Assembly: GCA_020341795.1 (NCBI GenBank)
Contig: CP070836.1
Span: 765,439 to 827,676, forward strand
Source of the DNA: Thermoplasmatales archaeon
GTDB lineage: Archaea > Thermoplasmatota > E2 > DHVEG-1
DNA: 62,238 nucleotides
Reading direction: 5' to 3'
Shown here: positions 11,058 through 30,631 of the stretch, piece by piece
How the letters are laid out: each line of letters starts with the position of its first letter
Position numbering within the stretch: the first letter of the stretch is position 1
Position numbers and translations under genes: made by a program
Notes under the pieces: model-generated
The model's database searches: none
Told to the model about the DNA's origin: nothing
Seen by the model: only the letters and a program-made list of their open reading frames with translations

Positions 11058-11089
11058 TTTTTATAACCTCTTCTATCCAATTACATTAA

Positions 11090-14987: not shown

Positions 14988-16934
14988 CTAGCCTACAAGT
15001 CCTCCTATTTGAGCAAGTAGTTGTTTCATATCAAAATGTTTCATTGAAATACAACCAGTTGGGCATGCTGATGCACATGAACCGCATCCTTTACATAGCA
15101 CATCATTTACCCGCATTATTTTATCTTTTTCATCAAACTCAAGAGCAGAATATGCACAGAGATCTTCACATATTCGGCATCCGCTACATAAATCTTCATC
15201 AATGTTTGCAGAAATTGCTTCTACCTCTACTTTACCTGCTGCAAGTGGCTCAGCTGCTCTAACCGCTGCACCACTAGCTTGTGCAACAGCATCAGGGATA
15301 TCCTTTGGACTTTGACAACAACCTGCTAAAAATATTCCATCTGTAAATGTATCAACTGGTCTAAGCTTTGGATGTGCCTCTAGGAAGAATCCATCTGCAC
15401 TCTGGTTGATATTTAAAATCCTAGATAACTCCTTTGAATCTTTTCTTGGTATTATACCCGTTGCAAGTACTACAAGGTCTGCTTCAATATCAGGATGCCC
15501 CTTGGCTTTTACAACGACTCTGTCACCTTGCTTGTTAACCTTTATAGGATCACCAAGATCTCTACGTCGATAGGTGATTCCTTCTCCTTGAACACGATTG
15601 TAGAATTCTTCAAAACCTTTACCGAAAGCTCGAACATCTGTAAAATAAATTATTAAATCTGCATCTGGAATTTTATCTTTTACCATATGAGCTTGTTTTG
15701 CAGTATACATACAACAAACACGGGAACAATACTCATTAGTCTCTTTATCACGAGAACCCACACATTGAATAAATACAACTTTTTTTGGTTTTTTACCATT
15801 AATTTCAACGTGCCCTTCTGTGGGTCCTGATGCTGAAACTAATCGTTCAAATTCAAGACCTGTAATAACATTATCATATTGACCATAACCATATTCTGCT
15901 TTTTTAGCAGGATCGAACAACTCGTAACCTGTAGCAACCACAATTGTCCCAACTTCAACTTCTACAATTTCTTCTTTCTGATCAAAATCTATTGCATTTC
16001 TATCATCACATGCTTCAATACATAAAGCATGGTCACCACATTTACCAGTTTTGAGAGTTATACAAGTTTCAGGATCGATGGTATATTTAAGTGGAACAGA
16101 TTGTGGAAATGGAACATAAATAGCACTACGTTTACTCATTTTCATGTCAAATTCATTTGGTATTCTATTGTGAAGCCTACAGGCTTCAGCACATGCTCCG
16201 CATCCAACACATTTCTCAATGTCAACATATCTAGGTTTCTTTTTAATTTTCACTTTGAAATTACCTATATATCCTTCAACATCTTGCACTTCTGAATAGG
16301 TAAAAAGTTCAATATTTGGATGACGTGCTACATCCACCATTTTAGGCGTAAGTATACATGCAGAACAGTCCATAGTGGGAAAAGTCTTATCAAGTTGAGC
16401 CATATGTCCACCGATACTTGGGTTTCGTTCTACAAGATACACCTTAAAACCTTTTTCTGCAATCTCAAGGGCTGCCTGAATTCCAGCGATACCCCCACCC
16501 ACAACAAGTGCTCGTGGAATTACACTTACTTCCTTTTTTTCAAGAGGTTCTAAAAAAGTTGCTCTTGCAACTGCTCCTTCAACTAAATGCTTAGCTTTTG
16601 CAGTTGCTCTGTCTTTGTCCTCATGAACCCATGAGCAATGTTCTCGTAGATTAACCATTTCAAAATAGTATGGATTCATACCCATATCCTCTAGAACAGC
16701 TCTGAAAGTAGGCTCGTGCATTCGTGGACTACACGATGCAACTACAACTCGATCTAATTTCATCTCTTTGATATCTTTTTTTATTAGCTCTTGTCCAGGA
16801 TCAGAACACATATATTTATAAAAACGAGCAACTTCTACACTAGGTAAGGTACTTGCGTATTTTACTACTTCTTCAACATCAACTGTTTGAGAAATATTGA
16901 TTCCACATTGACAGATATATACACCAATTTTCAT
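14988..16934 (-). CDS. hdrA: Heterodisulfide reductase subunit A (canonical length, 648 aa)
   Basis: All HdrA hallmarks are present: N-terminal Cys domain, VVGGGIAGIQAAL, TFPTMDCSACIL, inserted ferredoxin motifs, FIQCVGSRD, YCSRVCCMY and a C-terminal ferredoxin domain. Confidence 0.9.
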   Translation of the reverse strand: MKIGVYICQCGINISQTVDVEEVVKYASTLPSVEVARFYKYMCSDPGQELIKKDIKEMKLDRVVVASCSPRMHEPTFRAVLEDMGMNPYYFEMVNLREHCSWVHEDKDRATAKAKHLVEGAVARATFLEPLEKKEVSVIPRALVVGGGIAGIQAALEIAEKGFKVYLVERNPSIGGHMAQLDKTFPTMDCSACILTPKMVDVARHPNIELFTYSEVQDVEGYIGNFKVKIKKKPRYVDIEKCVGCGACAEACRLHNRIPNEFDMKMSKRSAIYVPFPQSVPLKYTIDPETCITLKTGKCGDHALCIEACDDRNAIDFDQKEEIVEVEVGTIVVATGYELFDPAKKAEYGYGQYDNVITGLEFERLVSASGPTEGHVEINGKKPKKVVFIQCVGSRDKETNEYCSRVCCMYTAKQAHMVKDKIPDADLIIYFTDVRAFGKGFEEFYNRVQGEGITYRRRDLGDPIKVNKQGDRVVVKAKGHPDIEADLVVLATGIIPRKDSKELSRILNINQSADGFFLEAHPKLRPVDTFTDGIFLAGCCQSPKDIPDAVAQASGAAVRAAEPLAAGKVEVEAISANIDEDLCSGCRICEDLCAYSALEFDEKDKIMRVNDVLCKGCGSCASACPTGCISMKHFDMKQLLAQIGGLVG

Positions 16935-16950: not shown

Positions 16951-17790
16951 CTATCTTTCACCTTGAAGTTTTTTTAACTCTCTATATGAAAACACAGGTC
17001 CATCTTTACACACATAAAGATTTCCAATATTACATCGGCCACATTTACCTATTCCACATTTCATTCTCATCTCAAGTGTGGTAAAGATTTGGTCATCGTT
17101 AAATCCAAGTTTTTCCAAGTTTTGAATTACAAATTTAATCATAATAGGTGGACCACAGGTTACTGCAATTGTGTTTTTAGGGGATGGTTTAACCTTTAGA
17201 AGGTTGTCAGGTACGAATCCTACAAACTTTTTCCAACCATCCTCTTTTACATCAATTGATAGATGAACACTCACATCTTTACGTTTCTCAAGCTCAGCAA
17301 ACTCATCTTTAAATGAAATATCCTCTGTGGTTCTTGCACCATAGATTACATCCAATTTCCCATAGTCTTTCTTGTTATCAAGTACATAGTCTATTAGACA
17401 TCTCAATGGTGCTTGTCCTATTCCACCGCCAATGAATACTATGTTTTTTCCTTTCCAACCTTTCATATCAAAATTATTGCCATATGGGCCCCGTACACCT
17501 ACAACATCACCTACTTCTGCTTCATGGAGTGCTTTTGTTACTTTTCCATGTCGCATTACACTTACTTCAATGTACCCTTTTTTAGTTGGTGAAGAAGAAA
17601 TAGCAAACATACATTCTCCTTTTCCAAGTAAGCTTACCATTGCACATTGACCAGGTTGAAACATAAAATTATTCTGCAAATTTTTATCCTGAAACTTCAG
17701 TCTAAAGGTTTTTATTGCTCTTTCGCCTCCAACTTCTTCTTTTATATTTTCTATAGTTGCGAGATTTGGTTGATATGGATTTTCGCTCAT
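16951..17790 (-). CDS. FAD/NAD(P)-binding [2Fe-2S] oxidoreductase subunit (FlxA / HydG / AsrB / PyrK-like)
   Basis: 279 aa; GGGIGQAPL NAD(P) motif and C-terminal CGIGKCGRC cluster motif. Confidence 0.75.
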   Translation of the reverse strand: MSENPYQPNLATIENIKEEVGGERAIKTFRLKFQDKNLQNNFMFQPGQCAMVSLLGKGECMFAISSSPTKKGYIEVSVMRHGKVTKALHEAEVGDVVGVRGPYGNNFDMKGWKGKNIVFIGGGIGQAPLRCLIDYVLDNKKDYGKLDVIYGARTTEDISFKDEFAELEKRKDVSVHLSIDVKEDGWKKFVGFVPDNLLKVKPSPKNTIAVTCGPPIMIKFVIQNLEKLGFNDDQIFTTLEMRMKCGIGKCGRCNIGNLYVCKDGPVFSYRELKKLQGER

Positions 17791-18806
17791 GGTTTCACCT
17801 CCCCTGCACGGGTTACTACATCAATTATATCAATATTTACTGGGCATCCTTCTATACATCTACCGCATCCTACACATGCTATTACATCCAGATTTTTCGG
17901 GTAATAATTATATTTATGATATACACGATTACGTACTCTATTAGCACGTGTTGGTCTTGGATTATAACCTGATGCTTGAAGTGTATACTCAGGAATCATA
18001 CATGTATCCCATATACGAACGCGTCCACCCTCTATCATCGTTGATTCATCCTGTATATCAAAACAATGACATGTTGGACAAAGATAAGTACAAGTACCGC
18101 ATCTTAAACATTTATCAGCAATTTCTTTCCAAAAATGATTTTCAAATATTTTATCCAGTTTTTCATCGATTTTATCAATCTTCTGAAAACGTGTTATTGA
18201 GTTAACTGCTTTCTTTTCGACTTCTTTTTTCTTTGTTTCATCTGCTTTTGTAGCAGGTTTAAAAAGGCTTGATTTAACAATCTTTTTACCTTTTTCACTG
18301 TTTACCTCTACAAAATATTTTTCTCCTATATCTGTTAGCAATATATCAACATGTTTTGAGGAAGCAGGACTGTCATTAAAAGAAGTACAAAAACAGTTTG
18401 GATAAGGATTTGTACAGCTTAGACCAACTAGTAACATGTTATCTCTCCTTGTTACATAAAAAGGATCTTCAAAATCTTCTTTGAAGACTGGATCAATGAT
18501 AAAAAAGCTTTTAGCATCACATGGTCTTATTCCAAAGATTGCTTTTTTACTGTTATTTATATCAGGTGGTTGGATTTTAACCTTGGTACCAGGTGTAAAT
18601 TTAAAAAGTGTTTCAGTCTGACAAAATAAAAGGCTCTTCGGTGGGAGTTTTGAGTTATCATATTTCATGTTTATATCTTTAGGATTTTTTATTTCTTTGA
18701 AGTACGTTTCATCATTAACCTCTACAGGTGCGAACACTTTATTTTTACCCATGATTTCTGTAATAAACTTAGGGAGGTTATCTTTAGATAAAATATATCC
18801 GCTCAT
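17787..18806 (-). CDS. Iron-sulfur subunit (FlxB / HydB / AsrA-like, 2x[4Fe-4S])
   Basis: CLRCGTCTYLCPTCHC and CVGCGRCIEGCP motifs. 4-nt overlap with the downstream FlxA-like gene. Confidence 0.7.
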   Translation of the reverse strand: MSGYILSKDNLPKFITEIMGKNKVFAPVEVNDETYFKEIKNPKDINMKYDNSKLPPKSLLFCQTETLFKFTPGTKVKIQPPDINNSKKAIFGIRPCDAKSFFIIDPVFKEDFEDPFYVTRRDNMLLVGLSCTNPYPNCFCTSFNDSPASSKHVDILLTDIGEKYFVEVNSEKGKKIVKSSLFKPATKADETKKKEVEKKAVNSITRFQKIDKIDEKLDKIFENHFWKEIADKCLRCGTCTYLCPTCHCFDIQDESTMIEGGRVRIWDTCMIPEYTLQASGYNPRPTRANRVRNRVYHKYNYYPKNLDVIACVGCGRCIEGCPVNIDIIDVVTRAGEVKP

Positions 18807-18817
18807 TACATATCACC

Positions 18818-19801
18818 TCACAATATAAACTCCTCGGGATCATCCGGTTTAAACATAGCAAGTAATGGTTTTGCCTCTGCATCAACTCCTGCTTTGTAAT
18901 CAAACATCTCATGTATATCCTTGGTAATTTTTTTATTTAGTTTCATAAGTGGAATATCCATTGGACATGAACGTTCACATTCTCCGCAGCTTATACAGCG
19001 ACCAGCTAGGTGGAAAGCGCGCAGTAGATTCCAAGCAGTGTTTTCAGATAAATTAACTGATCTGCGAACCCATTGAGGATCTAAAATTTCAACCATACAT
19101 TCTTTACAATAGCACATTGGACAAGCTTGCCGACATGCATAACATCTAATACATTTATCAAATTCTTTTTCCCAGTTTTTCCATTTATCATCAAGTGATT
19201 TTTTCTCAAAGCCTTCGATTTCTTTATAATCTGGTTTTTTTACTCCTTTGATTTCCTTACCTATCAGTATATCATGTATAATTGGAGTTGGATACTCACA
19301 TTCCTTACACTTTTCAGGCATTAGTTCATCTTTTGAAAACTTCTGTGTTTTTCCATCAACCGTAACTGCAAATTTATCGTTGTCATATTTTACCTCAACA
19401 CTTTTATGCTGTCCTGGAAACTTTACTTTTAGCTTCTTTGGGTCTATAACACCTGTACATGGAATACCTATGATTACTACGTCTTCTCTTTTCAAACCTT
19501 TTTCCTGAATAATCTGTACAATAGCTCTTGAATCACATCCCTTAAGTACGATTCCGATCTTTCTTGTATCTGGCTCTTCACCCTTGCGAAGTGGAGGCTT
19601 ATCTTCAAGCATAGGGTATACTGCCAAATTATTTACACAAGTTGGATTAAAAACAAATTTTTCAGCATCTTTTTCTTCATATGCAAACGTTGGTGCAGCC
19701 TGAAATCCAGTGGTACCTTTGTCATATCCAACTACATATTTTACATCCTTGCGTCCAACAGTTTTTTTTACTGCATCGCGAAGGGTTTTTTCATCTACCA
19801 T
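18818..19801 (-). CDS. Iron-sulfur subunit (FlxC-like, 2x[4Fe-4S])
   Basis: CIRCYACRQACPMCYC and CISCGECERSCP motifs. It sits between the MvhD-like and FlxB-like genes. Confidence 0.65.
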   Translation of the reverse strand: MVDEKTLRDAVKKTVGRKDVKYVVGYDKGTTGFQAAPTFAYEEKDAEKFVFNPTCVNNLAVYPMLEDKPPLRKGEEPDTRKIGIVLKGCDSRAIVQIIQEKGLKREDVVIIGIPCTGVIDPKKLKVKFPGQHKSVEVKYDNDKFAVTVDGKTQKFSKDELMPEKCKECEYPTPIIHDILIGKEIKGVKKPDYKEIEGFEKKSLDDKWKNWEKEFDKCIRCYACRQACPMCYCKECMVEILDPQWVRRSVNLSENTAWNLLRAFHLAGRCISCGECERSCPMDIPLMKLNKKITKDIHEMFDYKAGVDAEAKPLLAMFKPDDPEEFIL

Positions 19802-20223
19802 TTATTCTCCCTCCTGAAATGCTGCATTGGACCTAATTTTCGTATATCTTCTGTTACTTCTTTTACTACCTCTGCAAATTTGTGTCCTTCAGCTGCAGAT
19901 ACCCATGTCATCCTAACTCGATTAGAATCTATACCTGTGTATTCAAGTAGATTTTTTAAAACAGCCATTCTCCGTCTTGCAAGATAATTACCACGTTCAT
20001 AATGACAATCACCAGGGTGGCAACCACCAATTAGTACACCATCTGCACCTTGTTGTAACGCGTTTATAACAAATATTGGATTTACACGTCCTGAGCACAT
20101 AACCCGGATTACTTTTAGATTCGGTGGATATTGTATCCTACTAGTACCAGCCAAATCAGCTCCAGCATATGAACACCAATTACATAAAAATCCAATTATG
20201 TTTGGTTCAAATTTTTCCTTCAT
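19795..20223 (-). CDS. mvhD: MvhD/FlxD-type [2Fe-2S] adaptor protein
   Basis: FLCNWCSYAGADLAG, MCSGRV and GGCHPGDCHY motifs. Very similar to the ORF at 22660-23094. Confidence 0.85.
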   Translation of the reverse strand: MKEKFEPNIIGFLCNWCSYAGADLAGTSRIQYPPNLKVIRVMCSGRVNPIFVINALQQGADGVLIGGCHPGDCHYERGNYLARRRMAVLKNLLEYTGIDSNRVRMTWVSAAEGHKFAEVVKEVTEDIRKLGPMQHFRRENKW

Positions 20224-20225: not shown

Positions 20226-21239
20226 TTAGCCTCCAATTTTTCTTTTTTCAATTTTTTTTATCGGACCTATTTTATCCAATTCTTTAACATAATCATCAAT
20301 TGCCTTCGATAGTTTTGCTGATTCCCCTGTTGAAAACCATTCTAGTCTAATTCGTTTTGGATCTATACCTAATTCCTTTATGACGTTCTTAAGAAGTACA
20401 AGTCGTCTTCTCGTCTTATAGTTACCATCATGGTCACATTCCTCAGGGGGACATCCAGCGACCATAACACCCCATGCACCTTCTTCAATGGCATCTAAAA
20501 CAAGTTCTGGTGCAACTCGACCAGAGCACATACTAACAATTATTCCATAAGGTGTTTTAACCAAAGATGGTGATTCACTAAGTTGCATACCTGGAAAAAC
20601 TGACCAGTTACATGCAAAGACGATAAGCTTTTTTTTGTCTTCTTTGATTATTTCTTTAACTTTATTATGAAGTTCTGGCAGTGTTATTTCGCATCCTTCT
20701 TTTTGAGAAATGGCACCGGTTGGGCATGCTGCCATGCATAAACCACAGCCTCTGCATTCAATTTTATCAACGGTCATTTTTTCTTTTCCTTCTTTGTCTT
20801 TTTTCACTTCAAGGGCCTCATATTTACAAATAGATTCACAAATGTGACAAATTGAGCAGAGATCTTCATCAATTTTAGCAATTGTTCCTTCGACGTCGAA
20901 TCCTTGTTCTATTAAATCCGCTCTAGCATCTGTAAGAATATCTGTTATGGGTACTCCTGCTGAACAGTTATCACTGCAGTTTTTACAATAAAAACATTGG
21001 AATATCTTATCAACAATTTTCTGAGTGGGTTTTATTTCACCAGTAATCATTCCATAGATTAGAAGTAATTTCCCACGAGGTGTATCTGATTCCCAATAAA
21101 AGGATTTAAAAAGTGGACAAAGCTCATAACAGTAACCACATCGAATGCATTTGTTTAGTTCCTGTTCATATTTTCTTGATCTTTTGAAATCACCATTTCC
21201 TTTAAAATAAAATAATTTACCTAAAATTCCCATAATCAC
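20226..21239 (-). CDS. Fusion protein: GlcF/HdrC-like N-terminal FeS domain + 2x[4Fe-4S] ferredoxin + MvhD-like domain
   Basis: CIRCGYCYELCP...DTPRGK...CFYCKNCSDNC (GlcF-N-like), then CSICHICESIC and CRGCGLCMAACP (ferredoxin). Residues about 203-337 read FACNWS...MCSGRV...AGCPPEECDH (MvhD-like). No CCG motifs. Confidence 0.75.
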   Translation of the reverse strand: MIMGILGKLFYFKGNGDFKRSRKYEQELNKCIRCGYCYELCPLFKSFYWESDTPRGKLLLIYGMITGEIKPTQKIVDKIFQCFYCKNCSDNCSAGVPITDILTDARADLIEQGFDVEGTIAKIDEDLCSICHICESICKYEALEVKKDKEGKEKMTVDKIECRGCGLCMAACPTGAISQKEGCEITLPELHNKVKEIIKEDKKKLIVFACNWSVFPGMQLSESPSLVKTPYGIIVSMCSGRVAPELVLDAIEEGAWGVMVAGCPPEECDHDGNYKTRRRLVLLKNVIKELGIDPKRIRLEWFSTGESAKLSKAIDDYVKELDKIGPIKKIEKRKIGG

Positions 21240-22663
21240 CCCACCTTGTATCTAAGATTTGTAGCTTGAACCCAGTTATCTGGTGCATCCATAATCTTAT
21301 GAGGATTCAATATATTGTTTGGATCAAGTGCCCGTTTTACTTTTCTCATAACTGGTATTATATCACTACGTGCTTTTTTCCATGGTGGTGCTTTTGAAAG
21401 CCCTATTCCATGTTCTGCTGAAGTTACACCGCCAACAGAATGAATATAATCATATAATTCATCAATTACTTTCTCTGCATCCTCCCATTGACTCTTCTTT
21501 TTTGAATCAAGCATAATTTTTGTATGAATTACGCCAGAGCCACAATGACCATATACTGCCATTATTACATTGTTGCGTTCTGCTATCTCATGGATTTTCT
21601 CTGCAGCCTCTGCAATCTTTGAATTAGGAACACCCATATCATCTGCAAGATCGGTGCAAATAATTCCTTCCTTATAGCGTGATAGAGAAGCAAAAAGTTT
21701 TTTTCTTCCACTAAATAGTTTTGTTCTTTCTGCTAAATCATAGCTTTTCTTGATATCTTTACCATTGTATTTTTTACAGATTTTCTTCATTTTTTCAATT
21801 TCAAAATCGACTGCTTCTTTTACATTTCCATCAGCTTCAAATAAAATAATTGCTCCTACCTCTTTGAGTCCAAGATTCATTGCTTTGTTTACAGCAACAA
21901 TCCCAATTTTATCCATTAATTCTAACATTGAAGGTTCACAGCCACTTGAGATAATGTCTGAAATTGCATTACCAGCATCCTCAAGTTTATCAAAATTTGC
22001 CACAGCTAAGCATCTAAATTTGGGTATAGGTCTGATTCCCATAGTTGCTTCAACAACAATACCTAAAGTTCCTTCAGATCCAACGATTAATCTTTCAAGT
22101 TGATAGCCTGAGGAGTGAACACGTGTATTACTACCAAGGTTTACTAGATCACCATTTGCAAGTACGACTTTCATACCATATACATAATCTCGGGTAGCAC
22201 CATATTTAACTGATCTAACACCTGATGCATTAGCTGCAATTTCCCCGCCAATTGTAGCAATTCTACTTGATGCAGGAGCAGGTGGATAGAATAGACCCAT
22301 AGGTTTTAATGCGCGGTTAAGGTCATCATCAACAACACCAGGTTCAACCTTTACTAGCATATCTTCAGGTCGAATATCTAAAATACGATTCATTTTTTTC
22401 ATATCTAGAATAATTCCACCATCGATTGGAACGGTATGACCTGATGTTCCAGACCCTGCACCTCTAGCGATTATAGGAGTTTTACTGGAGTTTGCATATC
22501 TCATGATTTTTTGTACTTGTTCAATTGTTTGTGGTCGAACTATTGCTGTTGGCATTGCATGATGAACTGATGCATCTGATGCATATACATATAAATCAGC
22601 TATATCATCTGAAACATTTTCTTTTCCAACTATTTTTTTTAACTTTTCTATATCAATCTTCAT
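21236..22663 (-). CDS. glcD: FAD-linked oxidase (GlcD / D-lactate dehydrogenase family)
   Basis: 475 aa. ARGAGSGTSG FAD-binding (PCMH-type) motif and C-terminal SAEHGIG...LDPNNILNP motif typical of GlcD/Dld. Confidence 0.85.
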   Translation of the reverse strand: MKIDIEKLKKIVGKENVSDDIADLYVYASDASVHHAMPTAIVRPQTIEQVQKIMRYANSSKTPIIARGAGSGTSGHTVPIDGGIILDMKKMNRILDIRPEDMLVKVEPGVVDDDLNRALKPMGLFYPPAPASSRIATIGGEIAANASGVRSVKYGATRDYVYGMKVVLANGDLVNLGSNTRVHSSGYQLERLIVGSEGTLGIVVEATMGIRPIPKFRCLAVANFDKLEDAGNAISDIISSGCEPSMLELMDKIGIVAVNKAMNLGLKEVGAIILFEADGNVKEAVDFEIEKMKKICKKYNGKDIKKSYDLAERTKLFSGRKKLFASLSRYKEGIICTDLADDMGVPNSKIAEAAEKIHEIAERNNVIMAVYGHCGSGVIHTKIMLDSKKKSQWEDAEKVIDELYDYIHSVGGVTSAEHGIGLSKAPPWKKARSDIIPVMRKVKRALDPNNILNPHKIMDAPDNWVQATNLRYKVG

Positions 22664-23094
22664 TTTTTCACTTCTTTTAACGGGTTTGGACCGATTTTTT
22701 TAAGTTGATCAACAAACTCTGTAGCAACCGATGCAAATTTTGCTCCCTCAGAAGCAGAGATATACTCAAAACGTAGTCGTCCAGGATCAATAGCTAATTC
22801 TTCTAGGAGTTTTTTCAAAAGTTTCATTCTTCTATTAGCTTTATAATTTCCAGACTGGTAATGACAATCACCAGGGTGGCAACCACCAATTAGTACTCCA
22901 TCAGCACCTTTTCGTAAAGCCTCTAAAACAAATACAGGATCAACACGCCCTGAGCACATAACACGTATTGATTTTATATTTGGTGGATATTTCATCCTAC
23001 TGGTACCTGCCAAATCAGCTCCAGCATATGAACACCAATTACATAAAAACCCGATTATGTTTGGTTCAAATTCTTTTGCCATATCCTTTTTCAC
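22660..23094 (-). CDS. mvhD: Methyl-viologen-reducing hydrogenase delta subunit
   Basis: FLCNWCSYAGADLAG, MCSGRVDP and GGCHPGDCHY motifs. Located immediately downstream of mvhG-mvhA-protease. Confidence 0.85.
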   Translation of the reverse strand: MKKDMAKEFEPNIIGFLCNWCSYAGADLAGTSRMKYPPNIKSIRVMCSGRVDPVFVLEALRKGADGVLIGGCHPGDCHYQSGNYKANRRMKLLKKLLEELAIDPGRLRFEYISASEGAKFASVATEFVDQLKKIGPNPLKEVKK

Positions 23095-23095: not shown

Positions 23096-23572
23096 TCAAC
23101 TCGAAATTTTTAAATTATTTTTTATTTCTTTAAGCGTCATTTTCACTGCTTTTGGTACTGCAGCAGCTATTTTAGGGCTTAGTTCCTCCCCAAAAATATA
23201 CGGAATTTTCCTTAGCACAATTCCAATTATTACAACCTCACGAGGGATTTTTTCTTCACCAAGACATTTTGCAAGTTTTATTGCTTCAACAAGTGAAACA
23301 TCATGCGGATTGTCAGAATGATAAGATGATAAATCAGAAAGAAGTAAGCGTTTTACTTCGCCATCTTTTGCCCCTCTAATATTTACTGCGTCGATTAATA
23401 TTGCTTTATCATAACCTACTATTAAATCTAGTAGATTCATACCACCTGTTTGGGCTTCATCTATGGTTATATCTGGATTTTTTACATATTGCTTTAATTG
23501 ATTTGCAACATGTATTCCTACTCCATCATCCTGTAGTATAGGATTTCCTATCCCGAGTACTATTGTTTTCAT
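23096..23572 (-). CDS. [NiFe] hydrogenase maturation endopeptidase
   Basis: MKTIVLGIGNPILQDDGVG N-terminus typical of HycI/HybD/FrhD-type proteases; 158 aa. Confidence 0.85.
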   Translation of the reverse strand: MKTIVLGIGNPILQDDGVGIHVANQLKQYVKNPDITIDEAQTGGMNLLDLIVGYDKAILIDAVNIRGAKDGEVKRLLLSDLSSYHSDNPHDVSLVEAIKLAKCLGEEKIPREVVIIGIVLRKIPYIFGEELSPKIAAAVPKAVKMTLKEIKNNLKISS

Positions 23573-23583: not shown

Positions 23584-25044
23584 TTACATATTTTGTCTTA
23601 GTGTTTTGTATAATTTTTTATTATAATCATATATTTTTACTTCCATAGGCATTTGACCTGGAAGTGTATGTGTTGCACATCCGAAACATGGATCATATGC
23701 TCGAAATGCCATCTCAACCATGTTTAGGAGTCCATCGTTGACTTTTCCACCTTTGATAAGTCCTTTTGCAGCGTTTCTAATTGACATGTTTATTGCCCCT
23801 GCATTGTTAACAGTTGCAACGATAAGGTTTGCTTTGTCGATTAATCCTTTTTTATCAAGTTTATAATGATGAATAAGTGTTCCACGACAGGCTTCAACAA
23901 CTCCATATCCTTCTCCTGGTTCACCAACAGGATTTTTTATTTTATCTGATGTTATTTCAGGGTCTTTAATTAGTTCAAGTGTTCTCTCTGTTGCATATAA
24001 AAGTTCAACTAGTCGAGCCCAATGAAATGCTAGTGTACTATTTACAGGTCTTCCACCTAGTGTTTCATATAACCTTTTGTATTCTTTATCAGCAAGTGGT
24101 GTTGCCATTCCATCTGCAGCATTTAGTCTTCCAAGTGGTCCTACACGATAAAGTCCACTATCCTTTCCATCGACATAACCCTTCCATCCTATTTTTTTAA
24201 GAAATGGAAATTTTATATAGCTCCATTCTTCAACGTGTTCACCAATGTTTTTGTAATAATCTTTCACATCGAATTTAGTAAATTCTTTTCCTTTTTGATC
24301 TGTAACTCGTATTTTTCCATCATAAAAGTTTACCTTGTTGTTTTTATCAACTAGTCCCATGTTGTAGGTTGCAAGTTGATAAGGATCGCTTAATATTACG
24401 TCAACATAGTCTTTGTTTTTTAGAACTATGTCATCAAACAGTTTTAGTGTAAATTGTGCAAAATCCCTGCAGGATTTAGCCATTGTTTCAATATCTTTTA
24501 CCTCATCTTTATTAAGACCTTTTGAAACACCACCTGGTAGTCCACATACTGGATGTGTTGCTTTTCCTCCAAGTATTGCTGTAATTTTTTGACCATATGC
24601 TCGGTGTTTTATGACTTCTTTACCAATTTCTACTCCTGCTTTTTCTATTACCCCTAGAACATTTCTTTTTGCAGCAGGTGCATCAGGACCTACTACAAAG
24701 TCTGGCCCACCAAGGTAATAAAAATGAAGTGTGTGATCATAGATGTAATAACCTACATACATTAACTCTCGAAGTTTCTTTGCAGATGATGGTGGATCAA
24801 CGTTAAATGCATCATCAAGAGCTTTTGTAGCTGCAAAGTGATGTGCTACTGGGCAAACCCCACAAATACGAGATGTAATTTGCGGCATATCTTCAGCACG
24901 TCTGCCTTGCGAAAATCTCTCAAAACCTCTAAGTTCAGGTATCTGCATATATGCATTTGCTACATCGCCTTTTCCATCAAGGAAAATAGCTATTTTTCCG
25001 TGACCTTCGAGTCTAGTTATTGGGTCTATTAAAATTTGTTTCAT
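23584..25044 (-). CDS. mvhA: [NiFe] hydrogenase large subunit, F420-non-reducing (group 3c, MvhA-like)
   Basis: N-terminal RLEGHG and RICGVCPVAHH motifs. C-terminal DPCFGCATH Ni-binding/cleavage motif with a 27-aa tail. Confidence 0.9.
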   Translation of the reverse strand: MKQILIDPITRLEGHGKIAIFLDGKGDVANAYMQIPELRGFERFSQGRRAEDMPQITSRICGVCPVAHHFAATKALDDAFNVDPPSSAKKLRELMYVGYYIYDHTLHFYYLGGPDFVVGPDAPAAKRNVLGVIEKAGVEIGKEVIKHRAYGQKITAILGGKATHPVCGLPGGVSKGLNKDEVKDIETMAKSCRDFAQFTLKLFDDIVLKNKDYVDVILSDPYQLATYNMGLVDKNNKVNFYDGKIRVTDQKGKEFTKFDVKDYYKNIGEHVEEWSYIKFPFLKKIGWKGYVDGKDSGLYRVGPLGRLNAADGMATPLADKEYKRLYETLGGRPVNSTLAFHWARLVELLYATERTLELIKDPEITSDKIKNPVGEPGEGYGVVEACRGTLIHHYKLDKKGLIDKANLIVATVNNAGAINMSIRNAAKGLIKGGKVNDGLLNMVEMAFRAYDPCFGCATHTLPGQMPMEVKIYDYNKKLYKTLRQNM

Positions 25045-26042
25045 TTATCTAACCTCCTATTTATTAAAGCAGCTGGTAAACCATATTTGTAAAAGGTACC
25101 AACTGGGTCGACTATTTGATCGATTAATTTTTCAACTTCTGCATCACTCATATTTTCTTCTCCATCAATTCCAATTACTGATGCAAGTGCAGAAATCATT
25201 TTAGCTCCTTGATCTAGTGCATTTGGTGTTGGACCACCGCATCCTGTACATGGCATATTTGCATCAAGACATCTTGCCTCACAGCTTCCACGGGTAGCAG
25301 GGCCCATACAGATAATTCCTTGTTCAAGAAGACATTTATCTTCTATCTTGTCGACCTCATAGATTCGTTTTATTTCTTTGATTCTTTTTTCTGATTTTTC
25401 AAATCTGCATTCATCACATACTGATTTCAAAGGACCAATCACACTGCCTTTTGGCGGTAGTTTTCCTTCAACAATTGCACCAACAGCGGTCATAATAAGA
25501 TCAGGAGTTGGCGGACAACCTGGTAAGTAATAATCGACATCTATTACCTGGTCAAGCTTACTAACTGATTCATAAAACTCAGGAAGAGTAAGGGTACCTT
25601 CTTTAACTTTAACATTTGTTTTTGGAACAACTTTCTTTGGATTATCAATCGAAGGATTGTTCTTATAAACAACGTCAAAGATTTCCTCCTTATTTGTAAC
25701 ATTTGCAAGTCCAGGTATTCCACCAAGGACTGCACATGCTCCAAATGCTACCATTACCTTTGATTTCTTTCGAAGTAGTTTTGCAATATGTTCCTGTTCG
25801 GAATTACGAATACCACCATTGAAGAAACATACATCAATTTGGTTATCCTTCATCGCTTCAACGTCTTTGTATTTAAAATCCATCGCAACTGGCCAAAATA
25901 ATATATCAGCTACAGCTACAACATCTAGAACTTTTTCATCAATGTCTAGAACAGCTATTTCACATCCACCACAACTTGCCGCCCAGTAAAATGCAAGTTG
26001 TAGTTTTTTCTTATCTTTTTTCTCTTTTTTCTCCTTACTCAT
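25041..26042 (-). CDS. mvhG: [NiFe] hydrogenase small subunit (MvhG-like)
   Basis: WAASCGGCEIA proximal cluster motif and further Cys clusters (CDEC, CMGPATRGSC, CTGCGGP). 4-nt overlap with mvhA. Confidence 0.85.
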   Translation of the reverse strand: MSKEKKEKKDKKKLQLAFYWAASCGGCEIAVLDIDEKVLDVVAVADILFWPVAMDFKYKDVEAMKDNQIDVCFFNGGIRNSEQEHIAKLLRKKSKVMVAFGACAVLGGIPGLANVTNKEEIFDVVYKNNPSIDNPKKVVPKTNVKVKEGTLTLPEFYESVSKLDQVIDVDYYLPGCPPTPDLIMTAVGAIVEGKLPPKGSVIGPLKSVCDECRFEKSEKRIKEIKRIYEVDKIEDKCLLEQGIICMGPATRGSCEARCLDANMPCTGCGGPTPNALDQGAKMISALASVIGIDGEENMSDAEVEKLIDQIVDPVGTFYKYGLPAALINRRLDK

Positions 26043-26076: not shown

Positions 26077-26958
26077 TTATTTTTCAAATACCCCCTTTTT
26101 CTTTAACAAAAGGACTGGATCCACAACATGTTCCTCAAACCCATAAAATTTTGGATCCAAACCCAACGCAACAGCTATAAGTTGGGTGTAATAGTAAACC
26201 GGAAGTTGTTTATAATTATTAAAAATTTTTTCTGCTTCTTTTCCACGTACATCAAGATTAAACCGACACAATGGACAAGAAAGCATTATAGCATCACTAC
26301 CACGGTCAATTGCATAATTTGTAATTTTATGCGCTCTATTTGAGACAAGTGTTTTCTCCTCAATTGTATGATAAGAACCGCAACATTCAATCTTAAATGG
26401 ATTATCAATAACCTCAGCACCAAGAGCTTTCAAAAGATCCTGCATTATTGTTGGTTCCTCAGCATCATCAATGGCAACTTCACGAGGTCTAAGCATCATA
26501 CATCCATAGTATGGCATTATTTTCATGCCTTTTAGAGGATTTTTAACCATTTTTTTAAGAACTGTGAAACTTACCTCGTCACGAAGGAACTCCAGGAAAT
26601 GCATAATTTTTATTGTACCTTTATAGTCATTTTCTCGATCCATGAATGAATTTAGTGTTTCAAGGTCATCAGGTATGTCTTTGACACGTTGATTTGTCTG
26701 TTTTAAAGTATTACAGCACATATCACATAGCGTGACTATTGTTTCTTCACCTTGATCTTCAGCATATACCAGGTTTCTAAGTGGTGCTAGATGATGCATT
26801 AGATCATCATCAGTCAATGATGCAACTACACCGCAGCATGTCCAATCCTCCATCTCAACCATTTCATGACCTAGTTTTTCAGCTATTGCAAACGCTGATT
26901 TCTCAAGGTTTTTTGCAGATGTCTTGAGTGTACAACCGGGGTAGTATAATAGTTTCAT
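26077..26958 (-). CDS. hdrB: Heterodisulfide reductase subunit B (two CCG domains)
   Basis: YYPGC...CCGV and YYGC...CCGS motifs (CCG domains); 293 aa. Confidence 0.85.
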   Translation of the reverse strand: MKLLYYPGCTLKTSAKNLEKSAFAIAEKLGHEMVEMEDWTCCGVVASLTDDDLMHHLAPLRNLVYAEDQGEETIVTLCDMCCNTLKQTNQRVKDIPDDLETLNSFMDRENDYKGTIKIMHFLEFLRDEVSFTVLKKMVKNPLKGMKIMPYYGCMMLRPREVAIDDAEEPTIMQDLLKALGAEVIDNPFKIECCGSYHTIEEKTLVSNRAHKITNYAIDRGSDAIMLSCPLCRFNLDVRGKEAEKIFNNYKQLPVYYYTQLIAVALGLDPKFYGFEEHVVDPVLLLKKKGVFEK

Positions 26959-26963: not shown

Positions 26964-27389
26964 TTAACCTACATTTTTCCTAAATAGGCTTACAAATGCC
27001 ATTTGAGGAATTGTTTCTTTTTCATCTTTTGTTATATTCTTTATATTTGTTCTATCAATTTTTTTCCTAAGAATTATCTGCCTAAGAGCCTCCATAATTT
27101 TAGTAATGTTAATATCACGTGGGCATCGCTCAGCACATGTAAAACATGAAGAGCATAACCATATTGTTTTTGAGTTTAGCACTTCTTTTCTATCAAGTAT
27201 TATATATCTTATTACTTCATCAGGTGAAAGATCCATCTCATCAACAAAGGGACAACCAGCTGAACATGTACCACACTGGTAACAGCCAAAAAGGTTTTCT
27301 CCACAGAGCTCCTCTACCTCCGTGAGTAGCTCGCCTTTTTTAAGCTGAATAGTGTTTAAATTTAAATTTCCTTGTAGTTTCTTACTCAT
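26964..27389 (-). CDS. hdrC: Heterodisulfide reductase subunit C
   Basis: CYQCGTCSAGCP and CSSCFTCAERCP motifs; 141 aa. 4-nt overlap with the upstream tandem hdrA. Confidence 0.85.
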   Translation of the reverse strand: MSKKLQGNLNLNTIQLKKGELLTEVEELCGENLFGCYQCGTCSAGCPFVDEMDLSPDEVIRYIILDRKEVLNSKTIWLCSSCFTCAERCPRDINITKIMEALRQIILRKKIDRTNIKNITKDEKETIPQMAFVSLFRKNVG

Positions 27390-30300: not shown

Positions 30301-30631
30301 CTAGTTTCACCATCGCTCCACCAATAGTTGATGTTTTATCTATAATAACGACTTTATATCCTTTATCAGCAGTATCAAGTGCTGCTTGCATTCCTGAAAT
30401 TCCTGCTCCAACAACAAGTACATCAGCGTTAATTACGCGTTTTTTTATTTTTTCTGCTCTTTGTGTAACTGTTTGAATTGTACTTTCTAGTTGTGGTGCA
30501 TCTTTGTTTTCAATTATTTCCTCTGGTTCTTCGTAGAAATAATCATCTTCTAACGGAATACCAAGATCATGGTCTTTTTTCTTATCGTAAGTCTTTAAGG
30601 GCATTTTTTCCTGCCTCAAAACCTCTTTCAA
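27386..30631 (-). CDS. hdrA: Single-chain tandem HdrA (two HdrA-type flavin modules, 1081 aa)
   Basis: Module 1 (about aa 66-490): VVGAGISGMQAAL, TFPTNDCSIC, inserted ferredoxin motifs, WIQCVGSR and YCSRVCCMY. Module 2 (about aa 510-1081): HdrA N-terminal Cys domain (YVCHCG...AACSPR...RNHCSWVH), IIGGGISGMKAAL and a C-terminal ferredoxin domain. The 5' end overlaps korC by 50 nt, or 23 nt if the second ATG is used. Confidence 0.85.
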   Translation of the reverse strand: MKEVLRQEKMPLKTYDKKKDHDLGIPLEDDYFYEEPEEIIENKDAPQLESTIQTVTQRAEKIKKRVINADVLVVGAGISGMQAALDTADKGYKVVIIDKTSTIGGAMVKLDKTFPTNDCSICTAAPKMVELSRHPNIELITYAGINNLQGKPGKFKAQIWRKSKYVDPDKCTGCDDCAEVCPVEIVNPFDEKLSTRKAIYIEFPQAVPIVYTIDYDACIGCGSCDRVCEPEAISFLEKSEEIEVNVGSVILATGFEVFEPTEMRKEYGYGKYDNVITALQFERLLSSFGPTEGKVKRLSDAKIPKSIGWIQCVGSRSEQLGFPYCSRVCCMYATKEASIAKEANPDIDITIYYMDIRAYGKDFQQYYDHAKDLGVKYIRGRPSSVYENKDKSLTIKYKDTLTGEIKEDTVEMLVLSTAIKPNEENKRLGEALGIEVDENGFFKQQELLTDPIQSTREGVFLAGCIQGPKDIPDSVSMASGAAAKAVAPIKDRERHIGKEFPPEKDVKGKKPRIGVYVCHCGKNVANYLDVEKVTEEAKKLPNVEHAEHIMFVCSEDSCKKIKEAIEGKKLNRIIVAACSPRTHGGLFQDTLMEAGLNKYLFEMANIRNHCSWVHSDDWDAATEKAIRLVRSSVAKARGLEALSEEEFSIYPATLIIGGGISGMKAALALADMGIKSIIVEKEKQLGGRLTNLHSMFPSDTKTEDILNPIINKIKKNKLITVMTDSELDKLEGYIGNYKGTIKQKGKTMEIEFGTIIVATGFREIDLKGKYEYGKNDNIISQTELETKIKANKLKEPKNVVMINCAGAMEEERPYCCRVGCGVAIKNAKLISQKYPKSKIYMLYRDMRVFGKEEEEYFAEVLKKHHVTMIRYPGDKKPGIILDKKDPKKGSVSVKVYDDILNEEMTLPADLLVLTVNTEGGAATEKLKNMLKVPVDAAGFFIETHAKIKPLDFSTSGVYMCGAAHYPKNLVDSIAQAEGAASRAAIPIAQEKMKGEGIVSEVNEALCRGCGLCESACAYSAIEMKPHPQDPSRMLAEVNRALCKGCGSCAAACLSSAIEQKGYKSDQINVMIAALCEKGKAK

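Follow-up and report, generated by a model that had tools for sequence, protein, structure and literature searches.

Our analysis defines a conserved, widespread and previously undescribed three-gene module consisting of a GlcD-type flavoenzyme, a five-cluster iron-sulfur protein ending in an MvhD-like domain (FUS) and a LarA-family racemase homologue. In one Thermoplasmata lineage the GlcD-FUS pair is inserted between the two mvhD genes of an hdr/mvh/flx array of about 25 kb. One far-reaching reading, to which we give a probability of roughly one in four, is that GlcD-FUS, HdrBC together with a fused double HdrA, MvhAGD and perhaps a TfrAB-like fumarate reductase lacking CCG domains would form one multi-port flavin-based bifurcating or confurcating complex linking malate/oxaloacetate and fumarate/succinate to H2 and ferredoxin, while the bacterial operons would encode a general MvhD-plug dehydrogenase. 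The window is a stretch of 62,238 nucleotides from a Thermoplasmatales archaeon (assembly GCA_020341795.1, contig CP070836.1, positions 765,439 to 827,676), and its relevant features are collected in Table 1.

Table 1. Features of the window, with positions counted from its first nucleotide.
Feature	Position	Strand	Evidence or residues
LarA-family nickel-pincer racemase, displaced third module member	7892-9139	+	malate-racemase signature (Tyr-Phe ... His-Lys)
HdrA-GltD fusion (Flx-like module)	11090-14974	-	
HdrA (Flx-like module)	14988-16934	-	
FlxC/B/A-like (Flx-like module)	16951-19801	-	
MvhD #2 (Flx-like module)	19795-20223	-	
FUS, FeS electron-transfer subunit with five clusters; 335 aa from the probable ATG start, 337 aa from GTG	20226-21239	-	
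FUS C-terminal MvhD-like domain, predicted [2Fe-2S], CNWS motif, residues ~203-331	20247-20633	-	Cys210, 238, 263, 268
FUS central 2x[4Fe-4S] ferredoxin domain, residues ~121-179	20703-20879	-	Cys128, 131, 134, 138, 162, 165, 168, 172
FUS N-terminal GlcF-N/HdrC-like 2x[4Fe-4S] domain, residues ~27-96	20952-21161	-	Cys31, 34, 37, 41, 82, 85, 88, 92
GlcD/LctD-family FAD-dependent D-2-hydroxyacid dehydrogenase, 475 aa	21236-22663	-	Pfam, LctD match, catalytic residues
MvhD #1, canonical, 144 aa	22660-23094	-	PF02662 2e-57
HycI-type maturation protease	23096-23572	-	HycI
MvhA	23584-25044	-	NiFeSe_Hases; VhuA family 1.3e-125
MvhG	25041-26042	-	Oxidored_q6
HdrB	26077-26958	-	CCG
HdrC	26964-27389	-	Fer4_8/17
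Fused double HdrA, 1081 aa	27386-30631	-	HdrA models
2-oxoacid:ferredoxin oxidoreductase gamma/beta/alpha, array head	30582-33191	-	
TfrA-like flavoprotein	33462-35108	-	
TfrB-like FeS subunit without CCG	35109-35897	-	

Both reading frames of the pair were located exactly where an earlier note on this DNA had placed them. The glcD stop codon overlaps the GTG start of FUS by 4 nt (GTGA), and glcD itself overlaps mvhD #1 by 4 nt (ATGA); glcD and FUS are translationally coupled. An alternative ATG at 21233 lies two codons downstream of the GTG, after the sequence AAGGTGG; FUS more probably starts there, which gives the length found in the database entry. GlcD lies immediately 5' of FUS in all five Thermoplasmata loci and in all eight bacterial loci of the sister clade. 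Given these 4-nt overlaps, the constant adjacency and an N-terminal domain of FUS that is closest to the N-terminus of GlcF, which in GlcDEF is the FeS partner of GlcD, it is highly probable that the two proteins form a heteromer. The E-values reported below, together with synteny conserved in 5/5 related loci, place the architecture and gene context far beyond chance.

The three-part architecture read earlier for FUS is borne out by domain profiles, a structure match and invariant cysteines. Residues 27-96 match Fer4_8/Fer4_17 (Pfam, 3.5e-11), and the model of the GlcF N-terminus (NF008434, positions 14-100) aligns with residues 20-107 at 1.1e-13, compared with only 2.2e-6 for the HdrC model. 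A 2x[4Fe-4S] ferredoxin match (Fer4_7/Fer4) follows over residues 121-178 (6e-16), and PF02662 (FlpD/MvhD) covers residues 206-325 along model positions 2-123 of 123 (1.5e-32). Taken together, the ferredoxin and MvhD parts (residues 109-328) match the C-terminal region of HdrA2 (NF040770 positions 559-775, 4.7e-52). The nearest solved structure for residues 201-331 is the MvhD chain 5odc_D (2.9e-26). In this regard, the AlphaFold2 (AF2) model of FUS is compact (pLDDT 84.4, pTM 0.78), with pLDDT of ~86-96 across most of the MvhD domain; the top four Foldseek matches of this predicted fold are MvhD chains (TM-target 0.76-0.82), and the HdrA C-terminal ferredoxin domain is also matched. No CCG domain (PF02754) was detected in FUS at E<=0.01, while the same search set finds HdrB at 3e-21. 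The absence of CCG domains, already remarked upon in the earlier note, means that FUS is not a GlcF or an HdrD.

As had also been observed, the CNWC motif of MvhD reads CNWS in FUS. Across 151 sampled instances of the MvhD domain, this second cysteine is present in 89 of 137 aligned domains and replaced by Ser in 28, whereas the other four cysteines are retained in 136/137, 150/151, 146/151 and 149/151 instances. Within the FUS family, the 20 cluster cysteines (8+8+4) are invariant across 57 members and Ser213 is at least 90% conserved. Judged from these alignments, the serine is a family hallmark at a position that varies among MvhD domains in general, and not a defect. Cys210, 238, 263 and 268 are candidate ligands for a predicted [2Fe-2S] cluster, with the second cysteine of the CxxC apparently dispensable family-wide. 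The C-terminal domain thus keeps both its MvhD profile match and four invariant cysteines, whose loss would have spoken against the earlier reading.

GlcD carries FAD_binding_4 (9e-44) and FAD-oxidase_C (5e-54) domains, and among solved structures it is closest to LctD from the confurcating Ldh-EtfAB complex (7qh2_C, 2.6e-80). Its score of 384.6 bits against TIGR00387 (glcD) is under the 567.9 cut-off, so the protein is not a glycolate oxidase equivalog. By alignment, the catalytic His418 corresponds to LctD His423, the metal-site residues His373, His380 and Glu417 to LctD His377, His384 and Glu422, and the carboxylate-binding Arg320 to LctD Arg328. These residues identify GlcD as a catalytically intact, predicted D-2-hydroxyacid dehydrogenase of the VAO/PCMH GlcD/LctD/D-2-HGDH group. 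In the distal pocket, Tyr371 and Lys382 align with Tyr432 and Asn443 of D-2-HGDH, which bind the distal carboxylate; both are invariant in the window GlcD and its eight orthologues, whereas lactate enzymes have small or hydrophobic residues there. Genes found nearby in the loci also speak for a malate-type substrate; they encode malic enzyme, Mdh-like proteins, citrate synthase, PEPCK, fumarase, TfrAB-like proteins and SucCD, among others.

The LarA-family gene noticed earlier is real, and its best PDB match is the malate racemase Mar2 (4.3e-63). It lies 12 kb from GlcD-FUS. According to a rule of thumb (PMC11770544), LarA1 positions 175, 176, 358 and 359 are F, F, W and E/Q in lactate racemases (LAR), and variable, variable, H/Q and K in malate racemases (MAR). 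The window homologue reads Y, F, H and K, which agrees with the MAR signature and not with the LAR one, and the same residues are found in the five operon-encoded racemases compared (L007, L008, L085-L087). It scores below every NCBIfam cut-off (for LarAH6, 384 bits against 500). The malate-racemase signature and the conserved Tyr/Lys pair of the pocket make D-malate a likelier substrate than lactate; the earlier assignment to D-2-hydroxyacids holds with respect to catalysis, but its lactate component does not fare as well. On these residues, the substrate of GlcD could well be a dicarboxylate such as D-malate, with D-lactate or D-2-hydroxyglutarate also possible.

The connection of the racemase to the pair is much stronger than had been suggested from their distance in the window. 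In a non-random sample of loci, GlcD-FUS-LarA is contiguous in 8/8 bacterial loci (L007, L008, L085-L090). Acidobacteriota and Desulfobacterota-type bacteria are among the groups that carry the module. Database labels for the genes of the module include 'glycolate oxidase' and 'hydrogenase iron-sulfur subunit'.

The physical association of the pair with Hdr/Mvh genes, in turn, is conserved in the archaeal lineage. The order OFOR-HdrA2x-HdrC-HdrB-MvhG-MvhA-HycI-MvhD-GlcD-FUS is kept despite differing downstream genes (L001 compared with L003-L005), and the Flx-like module is missing from L001, yet GlcD-FUS is retained there. All six subunits of HdrABC-MvhAGD are encoded together in the window, with a non-canonical HdrA: the fused double protein has a single N-terminal domain and a single C-terminal ferredoxin domain (domain map against 8rvu_a). 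No ETF domain was found in the array proteins or in the scanned window ORFs.

In a simple neighbour-joining tree of 23 sequences, FUS of the window lineage groups at 100% bootstrap with bacterial FUS embedded in hdrA-mvhD-(mvhG)-FUS-mvhA clusters, and not with the stand-alone clade. Embedded FUS also score higher against the MvhD Pfam model than stand-alone ones (111-121 versus 90-99 bits). The closest relatives (52-62% identity) lie in hdrA/mvh clusters of other phyla, with no adjacent GlcD. In addition, the Hdr enzyme can carry two different input modules simultaneously via VhuD, which is described as held by the N-terminal domain and the C-terminal ferredoxin domain of HdrA (PMC13518236). 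Conserved gene order, the FUS clade, the MvhD bit scores and this two-input precedent support coupling of GlcD-FUS to HdrA/Mvh in this organism, which we regard from sequence data as plausible, if somewhat short of probable. Against it, the single N-terminal domain and single C-terminal ferredoxin domain of the fused HdrA may provide only one canonical MvhD site per polypeptide, which MvhD #1 already needs.

From the genes present, the identity of their domains, the ligands for the clusters, the catalytic residues and the conserved synteny, we propose the following model. GlcD-FUS would be a soluble heteromeric D-2-hydroxyacid:acceptor oxidoreductase. The LarA homologue would convert L-malate to D-malate, which GlcD would oxidize at the metal/His active site beside FAD, and electrons would run along a linear wire from the GlcF-like 2x[4Fe-4S] domain through the ferredoxin-like 2x[4Fe-4S] domain to the MvhD-like [2Fe-2S] cluster, a plug docking the wire onto a partner. 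In the Thermoplasmata lineage this partner would be the HdrA/Mvh machine whose genes surround the pair, with separate MvhD-type adaptors serving three modules: H2 (MvhAG with MvhD #1), hydroxyacid (GlcD with FUS) and NAD(P)H (the Flx-like module with MvhD #2). Which way the electrons would run is suggested by textbook potentials only: about -170 to -190 mV for the oxaloacetate/malate and pyruvate/lactate couples, -414 mV for H2, ~-450 mV for ferredoxin, ~-140 mV for the HdrBC disulfide and +30 mV for fumarate. With a couple near -170 to -190 mV, reduction of ferredoxin plus disulfide would be uphill, so that a hydroxyacid is no substitute for H2, and the input analogous to H2 put forward in the earlier note would be thermodynamically unfavourable with HdrBC. 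A high-potential partner, or a donor with fumarate as acceptor, fits better. The system could thus (a) provide the high-potential acceptor in H2-driven bifurcation (2 H2 + 2-oxoacid + oxidized ferredoxin -> hydroxyacid + reduced ferredoxin), (b) run in reverse as confurcation, producing H2 from hydroxyacid and ferredoxin reduced by the adjacent 2-oxoacid:ferredoxin oxidoreductase, or (c) use the hydroxyacid as donor and fumarate, via the TfrAB-like protein, as high-potential acceptor.

The bacterial loci suggest another possibility, namely that GlcD-FUS is an autonomous D-2-hydroxyacid dehydrogenase, the MvhD-like [2Fe-2S] being an exit cluster to a diffusible or non-Hdr acceptor (ferredoxin/flavodoxin, MetVF or a thiol protein) and the position in the array a matter of co-regulation or operon drift. 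None of the eight bacterial loci has hdrA, Hdr or Mvh genes within 8-10 kb of the module: it stands alone in L087 and L088, is directly followed by MetV-MetF in L007, L008 and L085 (with no hdrA beside MetVF in that range), and has unrelated or non-Hdr flanking genes in the others. The MvhD-like domain clearly uses other partners or acceptors there and, since the module mostly occurs without nearby hdrA/mvh, HdrA dependence is no general property of GlcD-FUS. The wiring into HdrA envisaged earlier is favoured by the archaeal embedding and by the FUS relatives in hdrA-mvhD-mvhGA clusters, but not by the bacterial module. The 12-kb displacement of the window racemase also indicates that the module has been rearranged. 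Nevertheless, we consider an autonomous enzyme rather unlikely: the pair sits exactly between two mvhD genes with translational coupling, an arrangement that is conserved; the archaeal FUS falls in the clade of Hdr/Mvh-embedded proteins and not in the stand-alone one; and, to our knowledge, the MvhD domain of every characterized system is a docking adaptor, never a free carrier. Alternatively, FUS might dock on MvhG, making MvhAG-FUS-GlcD an H2:2-oxoacid oxidoreductase that bypasses HdrA as an exergonic sink. FUS does lie between mvhG and mvhA in L006 and between mvhD and mvhG in Chloroflexota loci, and electron transfer from H2 to a 2-oxoacid (~-180 mV) is strongly downhill; such a route is improbable, however, as all those clusters also encode hdrA, a canonical MvhD is already encoded beside mvhA and ~230 mV would be wasted in an energy-limited fermenter.

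The earlier model in its literal form, where D-lactate from a lactate racemase enters HdrA as H2 does and drives reduction of ferredoxin and the HdrBC disulfide, could appeal to LctD, a lactate dehydrogenase subunit, as the closest solved GlcD relative, and to the lct operon of Acetobacterium woodii, which likewise joins a GlcD-type Ldh with a LarA racemase. The racemase signature, the Tyr/Lys pair in the pocket and the insufficiency of a -190 mV donor for both acceptors make it very improbable. Finally, FUS may serve another flavoenzyme, such as the TfrAB-like one, where it occurs in hdr/mvh clusters without GlcD: TfrAB-like genes flank such clusters in L009 and L010, and L006 and L029 have FUS but no hdrBC. 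FUS could then be primarily the partner of a TfrAB-like fumarate reductase, whose TfrB-like protein without CCG needs one, or of HdrA as an HdrC substitute, leaving the GlcD adjacency secondary. GlcD and FUS are adjacent throughout the sister clade and the window lineage, however, the N-terminal domain is GlcF-like and the window TfrAB-like genes lie ~12 kb away, which leaves little room for this reading.

The known inputs to HdrA-based bifurcation are H2, formate, F420H2 and NAD(P)H. A hydroxyacid/oxoacid port would bring central carbon metabolism within its reach in archaea that are abundant in sediments but uncultured, relatives of Thermoplasmatales SG8-52, and would be another way, independent of Etf, to achieve the uphill oxidation of hydroxyacids at ~-180 mV. 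If true, the multi-port complex would be the first case of an organic 2-hydroxyacid being used by an HdrA-based machine, allowing cytoplasmic, membrane-free energy conservation in C4-dicarboxylate or amino-acid fermentation, and hundreds of bacterial GlcD-FUS-LarA operons would encode a dehydrogenase plugged by MvhD into varied partners, including the methylene-THF reductase MetVF. Independently of Hdr, the analysis defines a widespread module in which GlcD and an FeS wire ending in MvhD go together with a LarA homologue resembling malate racemases, the hypothesis predicting a specific substrate, heteromer and docking partner. The in vivo role of nickel-pincer malate racemases is an open question of that field (PMC7583248), and the module places such enzymes in a physiological setting.

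Among known systems, Ldh-EtfAB (LctBCD) of A. woodii (7qh2; PMC9232219) has the closest solved dehydrogenase subunit, whose catalytic His, metal triad and Arg recur in GlcD. It ties a hydroxyacid couple of ~-190 mV to low-potential ferredoxin chemistry via a dedicated electron-transfer partner. GlcD-FUS may work in a like manner. It is no LctBCD member, the partner of GlcD being an FeS protein that has five clusters and an MvhD domain, in an array without etf genes; any bifurcating flavin would be that of HdrA, and racemase and pocket residues suggest malate instead of lactate. The lct operon resembles the module in combining Ldh with a LarA-type racemase. GlcDEF glycolate oxidase and the GlcD/HdrD (Dld-HdrD) pairs of archaea and sulfate reducers, the latter discussed in the literature for non-methanogenic archaea, share a GlcD flavoprotein and an FeS subunit with a GlcF/HdrC-type N-terminal 2x[4Fe-4S] domain. 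GlcF and HdrD, however, end in CCG domains reacting with quinone or disulfide, where FUS ends in ferredoxin and MvhD domains, and GlcE is absent here. The ferredoxin-MvhD C-terminus of Methanosarcina acetivorans HdrA2 resembles FUS, which lacks the HdrA flavin domain. In FlxABCD-HdrABC of Desulfovibrio, an NADH-dependent Hdr, HdrA receives its input from a module that is no hydrogenase and has an MvhD-like subunit of its own, FlxD; in the window, a Flx-like module that includes MvhD #2 follows immediately downstream of FUS. For GlcD-FUS the input is a hydroxyacid dehydrogenase, not a flavoprotein that binds NAD(P)H, and its MvhD forms one protein with the wire. The association of MvhD with MetFV in MetFV-HdrABC-MvhD of Moorella thermoacetica is echoed by MetV-MetF following the module in three bacterial loci. 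In MvhAGD-HdrABC and FdhAB-MvhD-HdrABC of methanogens (5odc, 7bkb; Hdr-Vhu-Fwd super-assembly, PMC13518236), an MvhD-type [2Fe-2S] adaptor links the input enzyme to HdrA, all six Mvh/Hdr subunits are likewise encoded beside the window pair, and there is precedent for one Hdr taking two different input modules; in this non-methanogenic host, four additional [4Fe-4S] clusters are joined to the MvhD domain, which is part of a flavoenzyme for an organic acid, and HdrA is a fused, domain-complementary double protein.

GlcD (a GlcD-family flavoenzyme) and its FeS partner FUS are two translationally coupled genes, and the pair is conserved across two domains of life. Both open reading frames described in the earlier note are present (see table), and the three-part build without CCG that it had read in FUS is borne out by domain profile matches, no CCG domain being detectable in the profile search. 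An ATG two codons after the GTG, preceded by AAGGTGG, is the more likely start of FUS and would give 335 aa. In profile comparison, the N-terminal domain is closest to the GlcF N-terminus (1.1e-13), with LutB/LdhH, HdrC and GlpC behind, and residues 109-328 match the HdrA2 C-terminus (ferredoxin plus MvhD) as one block (4.7e-52). The AlphaFold2 model of FUS is confident (pLDDT 84.4, pTM 0.78; alignment of 57 sequences); against the PDB, the MvhD chains of solved Hdr complexes come out on top (TM-target 0.76-0.82), followed by the HdrA C-terminal ferredoxin domain. FUS carries a GlcF-type docking domain, an MvhD-fold terminus and twenty cluster cysteines (8+8+4) that are invariant in 57/57 family members.

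The serine found in place of the second cysteine of the MvhD CNWC motif had been regarded as a possible weakness. Among 151 MvhD-domain instances, drawn from 50%-identity representatives, this cysteine is kept in 89 of 137 aligned cases and is Ser in 28, the first cysteine is kept in 136/137 and the three later ones in 150/151, 146/151 and 149/151. The Ser of CNWS is in turn at least 90% conserved among the 57 FUS-family members. On account of these cysteine statistics and the conserved serine, CNWS reads as a family hallmark that leaves four putative [2Fe-2S] ligands, from which we infer cluster binding; the idea that the serine disables the cluster was rejected on the same grounds. The MvhD-type reading would have fallen with a terminus lacking either an MvhD match or cluster-binding capacity; the profile match (1.5e-32) and the four retained cysteines leave it standing.

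Positions and content of the features (nucleotide positions in the window, residues for protein domains)
Feature	Position	Strand	Content
GlcD	21236-22663	minus	475 aa; FAD_binding_4 + FAD-oxidase_C domains of GlcD group
FUS	20226-21239	minus	Downstream of GlcD; 337 aa from GTG overlapping GlcD stop
FUS N-domain	residues 27-96		Fer4_8/Fer4_17
FUS central domain	residues ~121-179		2x[4Fe-4S] ferredoxin
FUS C-terminal domain	residues 206-325		MvhD/FlpD family, 1.5e-32
Array, order 1	33462-35897	minus	262-aa SdhB/TfrB-like FeS protein without CCG, TfrA-like flavoprotein
Array, order 2		minus	2-oxoacid:ferredoxin oxidoreductase alpha/beta/gamma
Array, order 3		minus	1081-aa fused double HdrA (HdrA2x, 27386-30631), HdrC, HdrB
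Array, order 4		minus	MvhG, MvhA, maturation protease, MvhD#1 (22660-23094)
Array, order 5		minus	GlcD, FUS
Array, order 6		minus	MvhD#2 (19795-20223), FlxC/B/A-like proteins, HdrA, HdrA-GltD fusion
HdrA-GltD fusion	11090-14974	minus	1294 aa; HdrA-like N-part, GltD/NfnB-like Fer4_20 + pyridine-nucleotide oxidoreductase core, C-terminal 2x[4Fe-4S] domain
LarA homologue	7892-9139	plus	LarA-family racemase
C25 (gingipain-type) peptidases x3, C10 peptidase x1	724-3839, 6184-7725, 57339-58781	minus	
693-aa ORF	59380-61461	plus	N-terminal PAS domain; low-complexity, coiled-coil-like tail

About 20 genes on one strand, 11090-35897 (-), form the array that contains the pair; from the 2-oxoacid oxidoreductase onwards, no intergenic gap exceeds 34 nt. 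The gene order places three MvhD-type domains in a row, each with its own redox module (hydrogenase; GlcD; NAD(P)H-type Flx). FUS and GlcD are each represented by more than 120 clusters, at no less than 73% and 74% identity, respectively; the best 120 matches of the GlcD search are all Thermoplasmata orthologues at least 74% identical, more distant partners lying outside that view. Wherever the flank of a related locus is long enough (5/5), the genes run OFOR (2-oxoacid:ferredoxin oxidoreductase)-HdrA2x-HdrC-HdrB-MvhG-MvhA-HycI-MvhD-GlcD-FUS. The Thermoplasmata locus L001 has a different hydrogenase in place of the downstream Flx-like module; GlcD-FUS is thus linked to the Hdr/Mvh genes on its upstream side, not to the Flx genes. 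This locus, too, has a LarA homologue, at a distance of about 10 kb.

HdrA2x is, by its domain matches, a fusion of two HdrA units that complement each other in domain content. Residues 68-441 correspond to HdrA positions 151-524 (FAD domain and inserted ferredoxin domain), residues 503-689 to the HdrA N-terminal domain and the beginning of the second FAD domain, and residues 924-1075 to the C-terminal ferredoxin domain. The inserted ferredoxin domain is apparently missing from the second unit, and the GxGxxG motif is kept in both. Double-HdrA fusions have already been noted (PMC11237513). At the end of the array, a Flx-like module in reversed order (MvhD#2-FlxC-FlxB-FlxA-HdrA) finishes with the 1294-aa fusion. 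The TfrAB-like pair heading the array (fumarate-reductase-like flavoprotein and FeS subunit) recurs at 55-59% identity beside FUS-containing hdr/mvh clusters of two bacterial MAGs (L009 16924-19286, L010 19711-21362) and is possibly a soluble fumarate reductase linked to Hdr.

Elsewhere, the window holds C25 and C10 peptidases, an aminotransferase, an aldehyde:ferredoxin oxidoreductase, a second 2-oxoacid oxidoreductase and a succinyl-CoA synthetase; the peptidases, the aminotransferase, the aldehyde enzyme and the two 2-oxoacid:ferredoxin oxidoreductases fit the profile of a peptide-fermenting, detrital-protein-degrading sediment archaeon. Named protein relatives belong to Thermoplasmatales archaea SG8-52-1, -3, -4 and M9B1D. 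An Rfam scan of the window gave no match, and a promoter/terminator scan of the array, which models no archaeal promoters, gave sites not above shuffles. At 60001-62000, G+C falls to 22% with a strong AT skew of +0.43, this stretch overlapping the 3' half of the 693-aa ORF.

A search over 1.84 billion representatives plus one genome per species recovered full-length three-domain FUS relatives in several bacterial phyla. Group 1 (about 35-45% identity to the window FUS) is spread over Acidobacteriota, Desulfobacterales, Syntrophorhabdaceae, Desulfovibrionales and other taxa and numbers at least 290 clusters at 90% identity. The order GlcD-FUS-LarA homologue occurs in 8/8 examined loci (L007, L008, L085-L090), with GlcD 60-65% and racemases 47-50% identical to their window counterparts, the flanking 8-10 kb being free of hdrA and mvh genes in all eight. 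Neighbours include two Mdh/Ldh-type genes, citrate synthase and PEPCK in L085, malic enzyme and aconitase in L090, and EtfAB with an HdrD-like protein on the opposite strand in L086; L087 and L088 have no related neighbour genes. In three of the eight loci, from Acidobacteriota MAGs and a bacterial genome of 6.9 Mb, the genes directly downstream encode MetV (DUF5981) and MetF (MTHFR) (L007 12197-13493, L008 12218-13808, L085 10246-11853), and hdrA is absent within 8-10 kb. This arrangement suggests a hydroxyacid-dependent methylene-THF reductase in which the MvhD-like plug replaces HdrABC-MvhD. On two unrelated contigs (L086 2842-6449, L089 2364-6045), a RACo-type corrinoid reductive activator pair lies divergently, directly upstream of the operon.

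Group 2 FUS (52-62% identity) is encoded within hdrA-mvhD-mvhG-mvhA clusters (L006, L009, L010, L082) that come from unclassified bacterial MAGs and one MAG of Gemmatimonadota, with an adjacent GlcD absent from 4/4 loci and TfrAB-like genes nearby in L009 and L010. The protein is fused in L006 and split between the ferredoxin and MvhD parts, in different frames, in the other three of the four (L009 ~10001-10947, L010 ~10417-11362, L082 10001-10923); the break falls at the same place in independent MAGs and reflects either genuine gene fission or a recurrent frameshift. Group 3 FUS (about 30% identity) has the same position in hdrA-mvhD-FUS-mvhG-mvhA clusters of Chloroflexota, which lack hdrBC. 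Compact bacterial hdrA-mvhD-(mvhG)-FUS-mvhA clusters without hdrB and hdrC are seen at L006 644-6402 and L029 7477-14256, an MvhB-like polyferredoxin coming next in the Chloroflexota one.

In a neighbour-joining tree, Thermoplasmata FUS and group 2 form a clade (100% bootstrap) that is sister to the GlcD-FUS-LarA clade. Identities, synteny and tree indicate that, in the archaea, an operon-type GlcD and racemase are joined to an Hdr/Mvh-embedded type of FUS. Pfam MvhD (FlpD) scores show a weak trend in few sequences, 111-121 bits for Hdr/Mvh-embedded FUS versus 90-99 bits for stand-alone FUS. They replaced a 'canonical MvhD' HMM, dropped because the stand-alone representatives behind it were themselves FUS matches, some probably split FUS C-domains, and biased the scores.

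With regard to the substrate, the best solved relative of GlcD is LctD of the A. woodii Ldh-EtfAB complex (2.6e-80); the Arg, the His/His/Glu metal site and the catalytic His are all kept, and GlcD is, by these residues, catalytically intact. Assignment as glycolate oxidase was rejected, since the score falls short of the equivalog cut-off and both GlcE and a CCG partner are lacking. The LarA homologue, ~12 kb from GlcD-FUS, has the malate racemase Mar2 as best solved relative (4.3e-63) and LarAH6 malate racemase as best NCBIfam model, with a score below cut-off. At four specificity positions, lactate racemases carry F, F, W and E/Q, and malate racemases carry H/Q and K at the last two (PMC11770544). 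These positions are Y, F, H and K in the window homologue and in five operon racemases (L007, L008, L085-L087); given this signature and the proximity to Mar2, lactate racemase was rejected as the default. In human D-2-hydroxyglutarate dehydrogenase, Tyr432 and Asn443 bind the distal carboxylate of D-2-HG or D-malate, the equivalent positions being small or hydrophobic in lactate and glycolate enzymes (PMC7801405). Their equivalents in GlcD, Tyr371 and Lys382, are invariant in the window protein and eight archaeal and bacterial orthologues, and C4-dicarboxylate enzymes are repeated neighbours of GlcD-FUS. Taken together, the racemase match and signature, the Tyr/Lys pocket and these neighbours make D-malate (L-malate after racemisation) the most likely substrate, at roughly even odds, and point away from lactate; D-2-hydroxyglutarate, tartrate-like acids or D-lactate are possible.

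MvhD, VhuD and FlxD are adaptors joining an input enzyme to HdrA in characterised systems, and a 2026 Hdr-Vhu-Fwd structure has hydrogenase and formate dehydrogenase on one Hdr simultaneously through VhuD (PMC13518236). Owing to this analogy, the conserved insertion of GlcD-FUS beside mvhD and the clade membership of FUS, HdrA/Mvh appears to be the best candidate partner in the window archaeon, and we put functional coupling at a probability of about 0.45. Electrons would pass from the FAD of GlcD to the GlcF-like clusters of FUS, reach the ferredoxin-like clusters next and end at the MvhD-like [2Fe-2S] cluster, whose domain would dock on the partner. The main rival, which we consider rather unlikely in the face of these three arguments, is that GlcD-FUS is an autonomous dehydrogenase with another acceptor. 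It draws on the bacterial stand-alone operons, where the MvhD-like plug has sockets other than HdrA, MetV-MetF being an obvious candidate because methylene-THF (-200 mV) is nearly isopotential. Two further points weigh against coupling to HdrA/Mvh. In the domain map, HdrA2x offers a single copy of the N- and C-terminal regions that reportedly bind VhuD, and among the FUS relatives embedded in Hdr/Mvh clusters the closest ones lack a neighbouring GlcD, so that FUS might serve another flavoenzyme there.

The earlier note had envisaged the hydroxyacid as an input analogous to H2. Textbook midpoint potentials (oxaloacetate/malate ~-170 mV, pyruvate/lactate -190 mV, H+/H2 -414 mV, ferredoxin ~-450 mV, CoM-S-S-CoB -140 mV, fumarate/succinate +30 mV) speak against this, since a hydroxyacid cannot replace H2 as donor to ferredoxin and an HdrBC-type disulfide. 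Under coupling to HdrA/Mvh, the hydroxyacid couple could be the high-potential acceptor in H2-driven bifurcation, or the hydroxyacid could be the high-potential donor in a confurcation to H2 with reduced ferredoxin, which the adjacent 2-oxoacid:ferredoxin oxidoreductase would furnish. With oxaloacetate kept low, electrons from the hydroxyacid as donor could also be split between fumarate, through the TfrAB-like pair, and ferredoxin.

In the literature searched, with incomplete coverage, we found no description of an MvhD domain at the end of a GlcD partner, nor of a GlcD module inside an hdr/mvh cluster; HdrD/GlcD pairs, Ldh-Etf and double-HdrA fusions are described there, together with the general observation that LarA homologues have COG0277/COG0247 genes as neighbours. 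The GlcD-FUS-LarA-homologue module is, provisionally, defined here for the first time. Ldh-EtfAB draws its dehydrogenase from the same family, also has a racemase gene in its operon and faces the same thermodynamic problem, but relies on an Etf that is missing from the GlcD-FUS system. GlcDEF and HdrD/GlcD pairs resemble FUS in the N-terminal FeS domain but differ from it in CCG, which FUS lacks. The Mvh-, Fdh-, Flx- and MetFV-Hdr complexes, in turn, have the MvhD adaptor principle in common with FUS.
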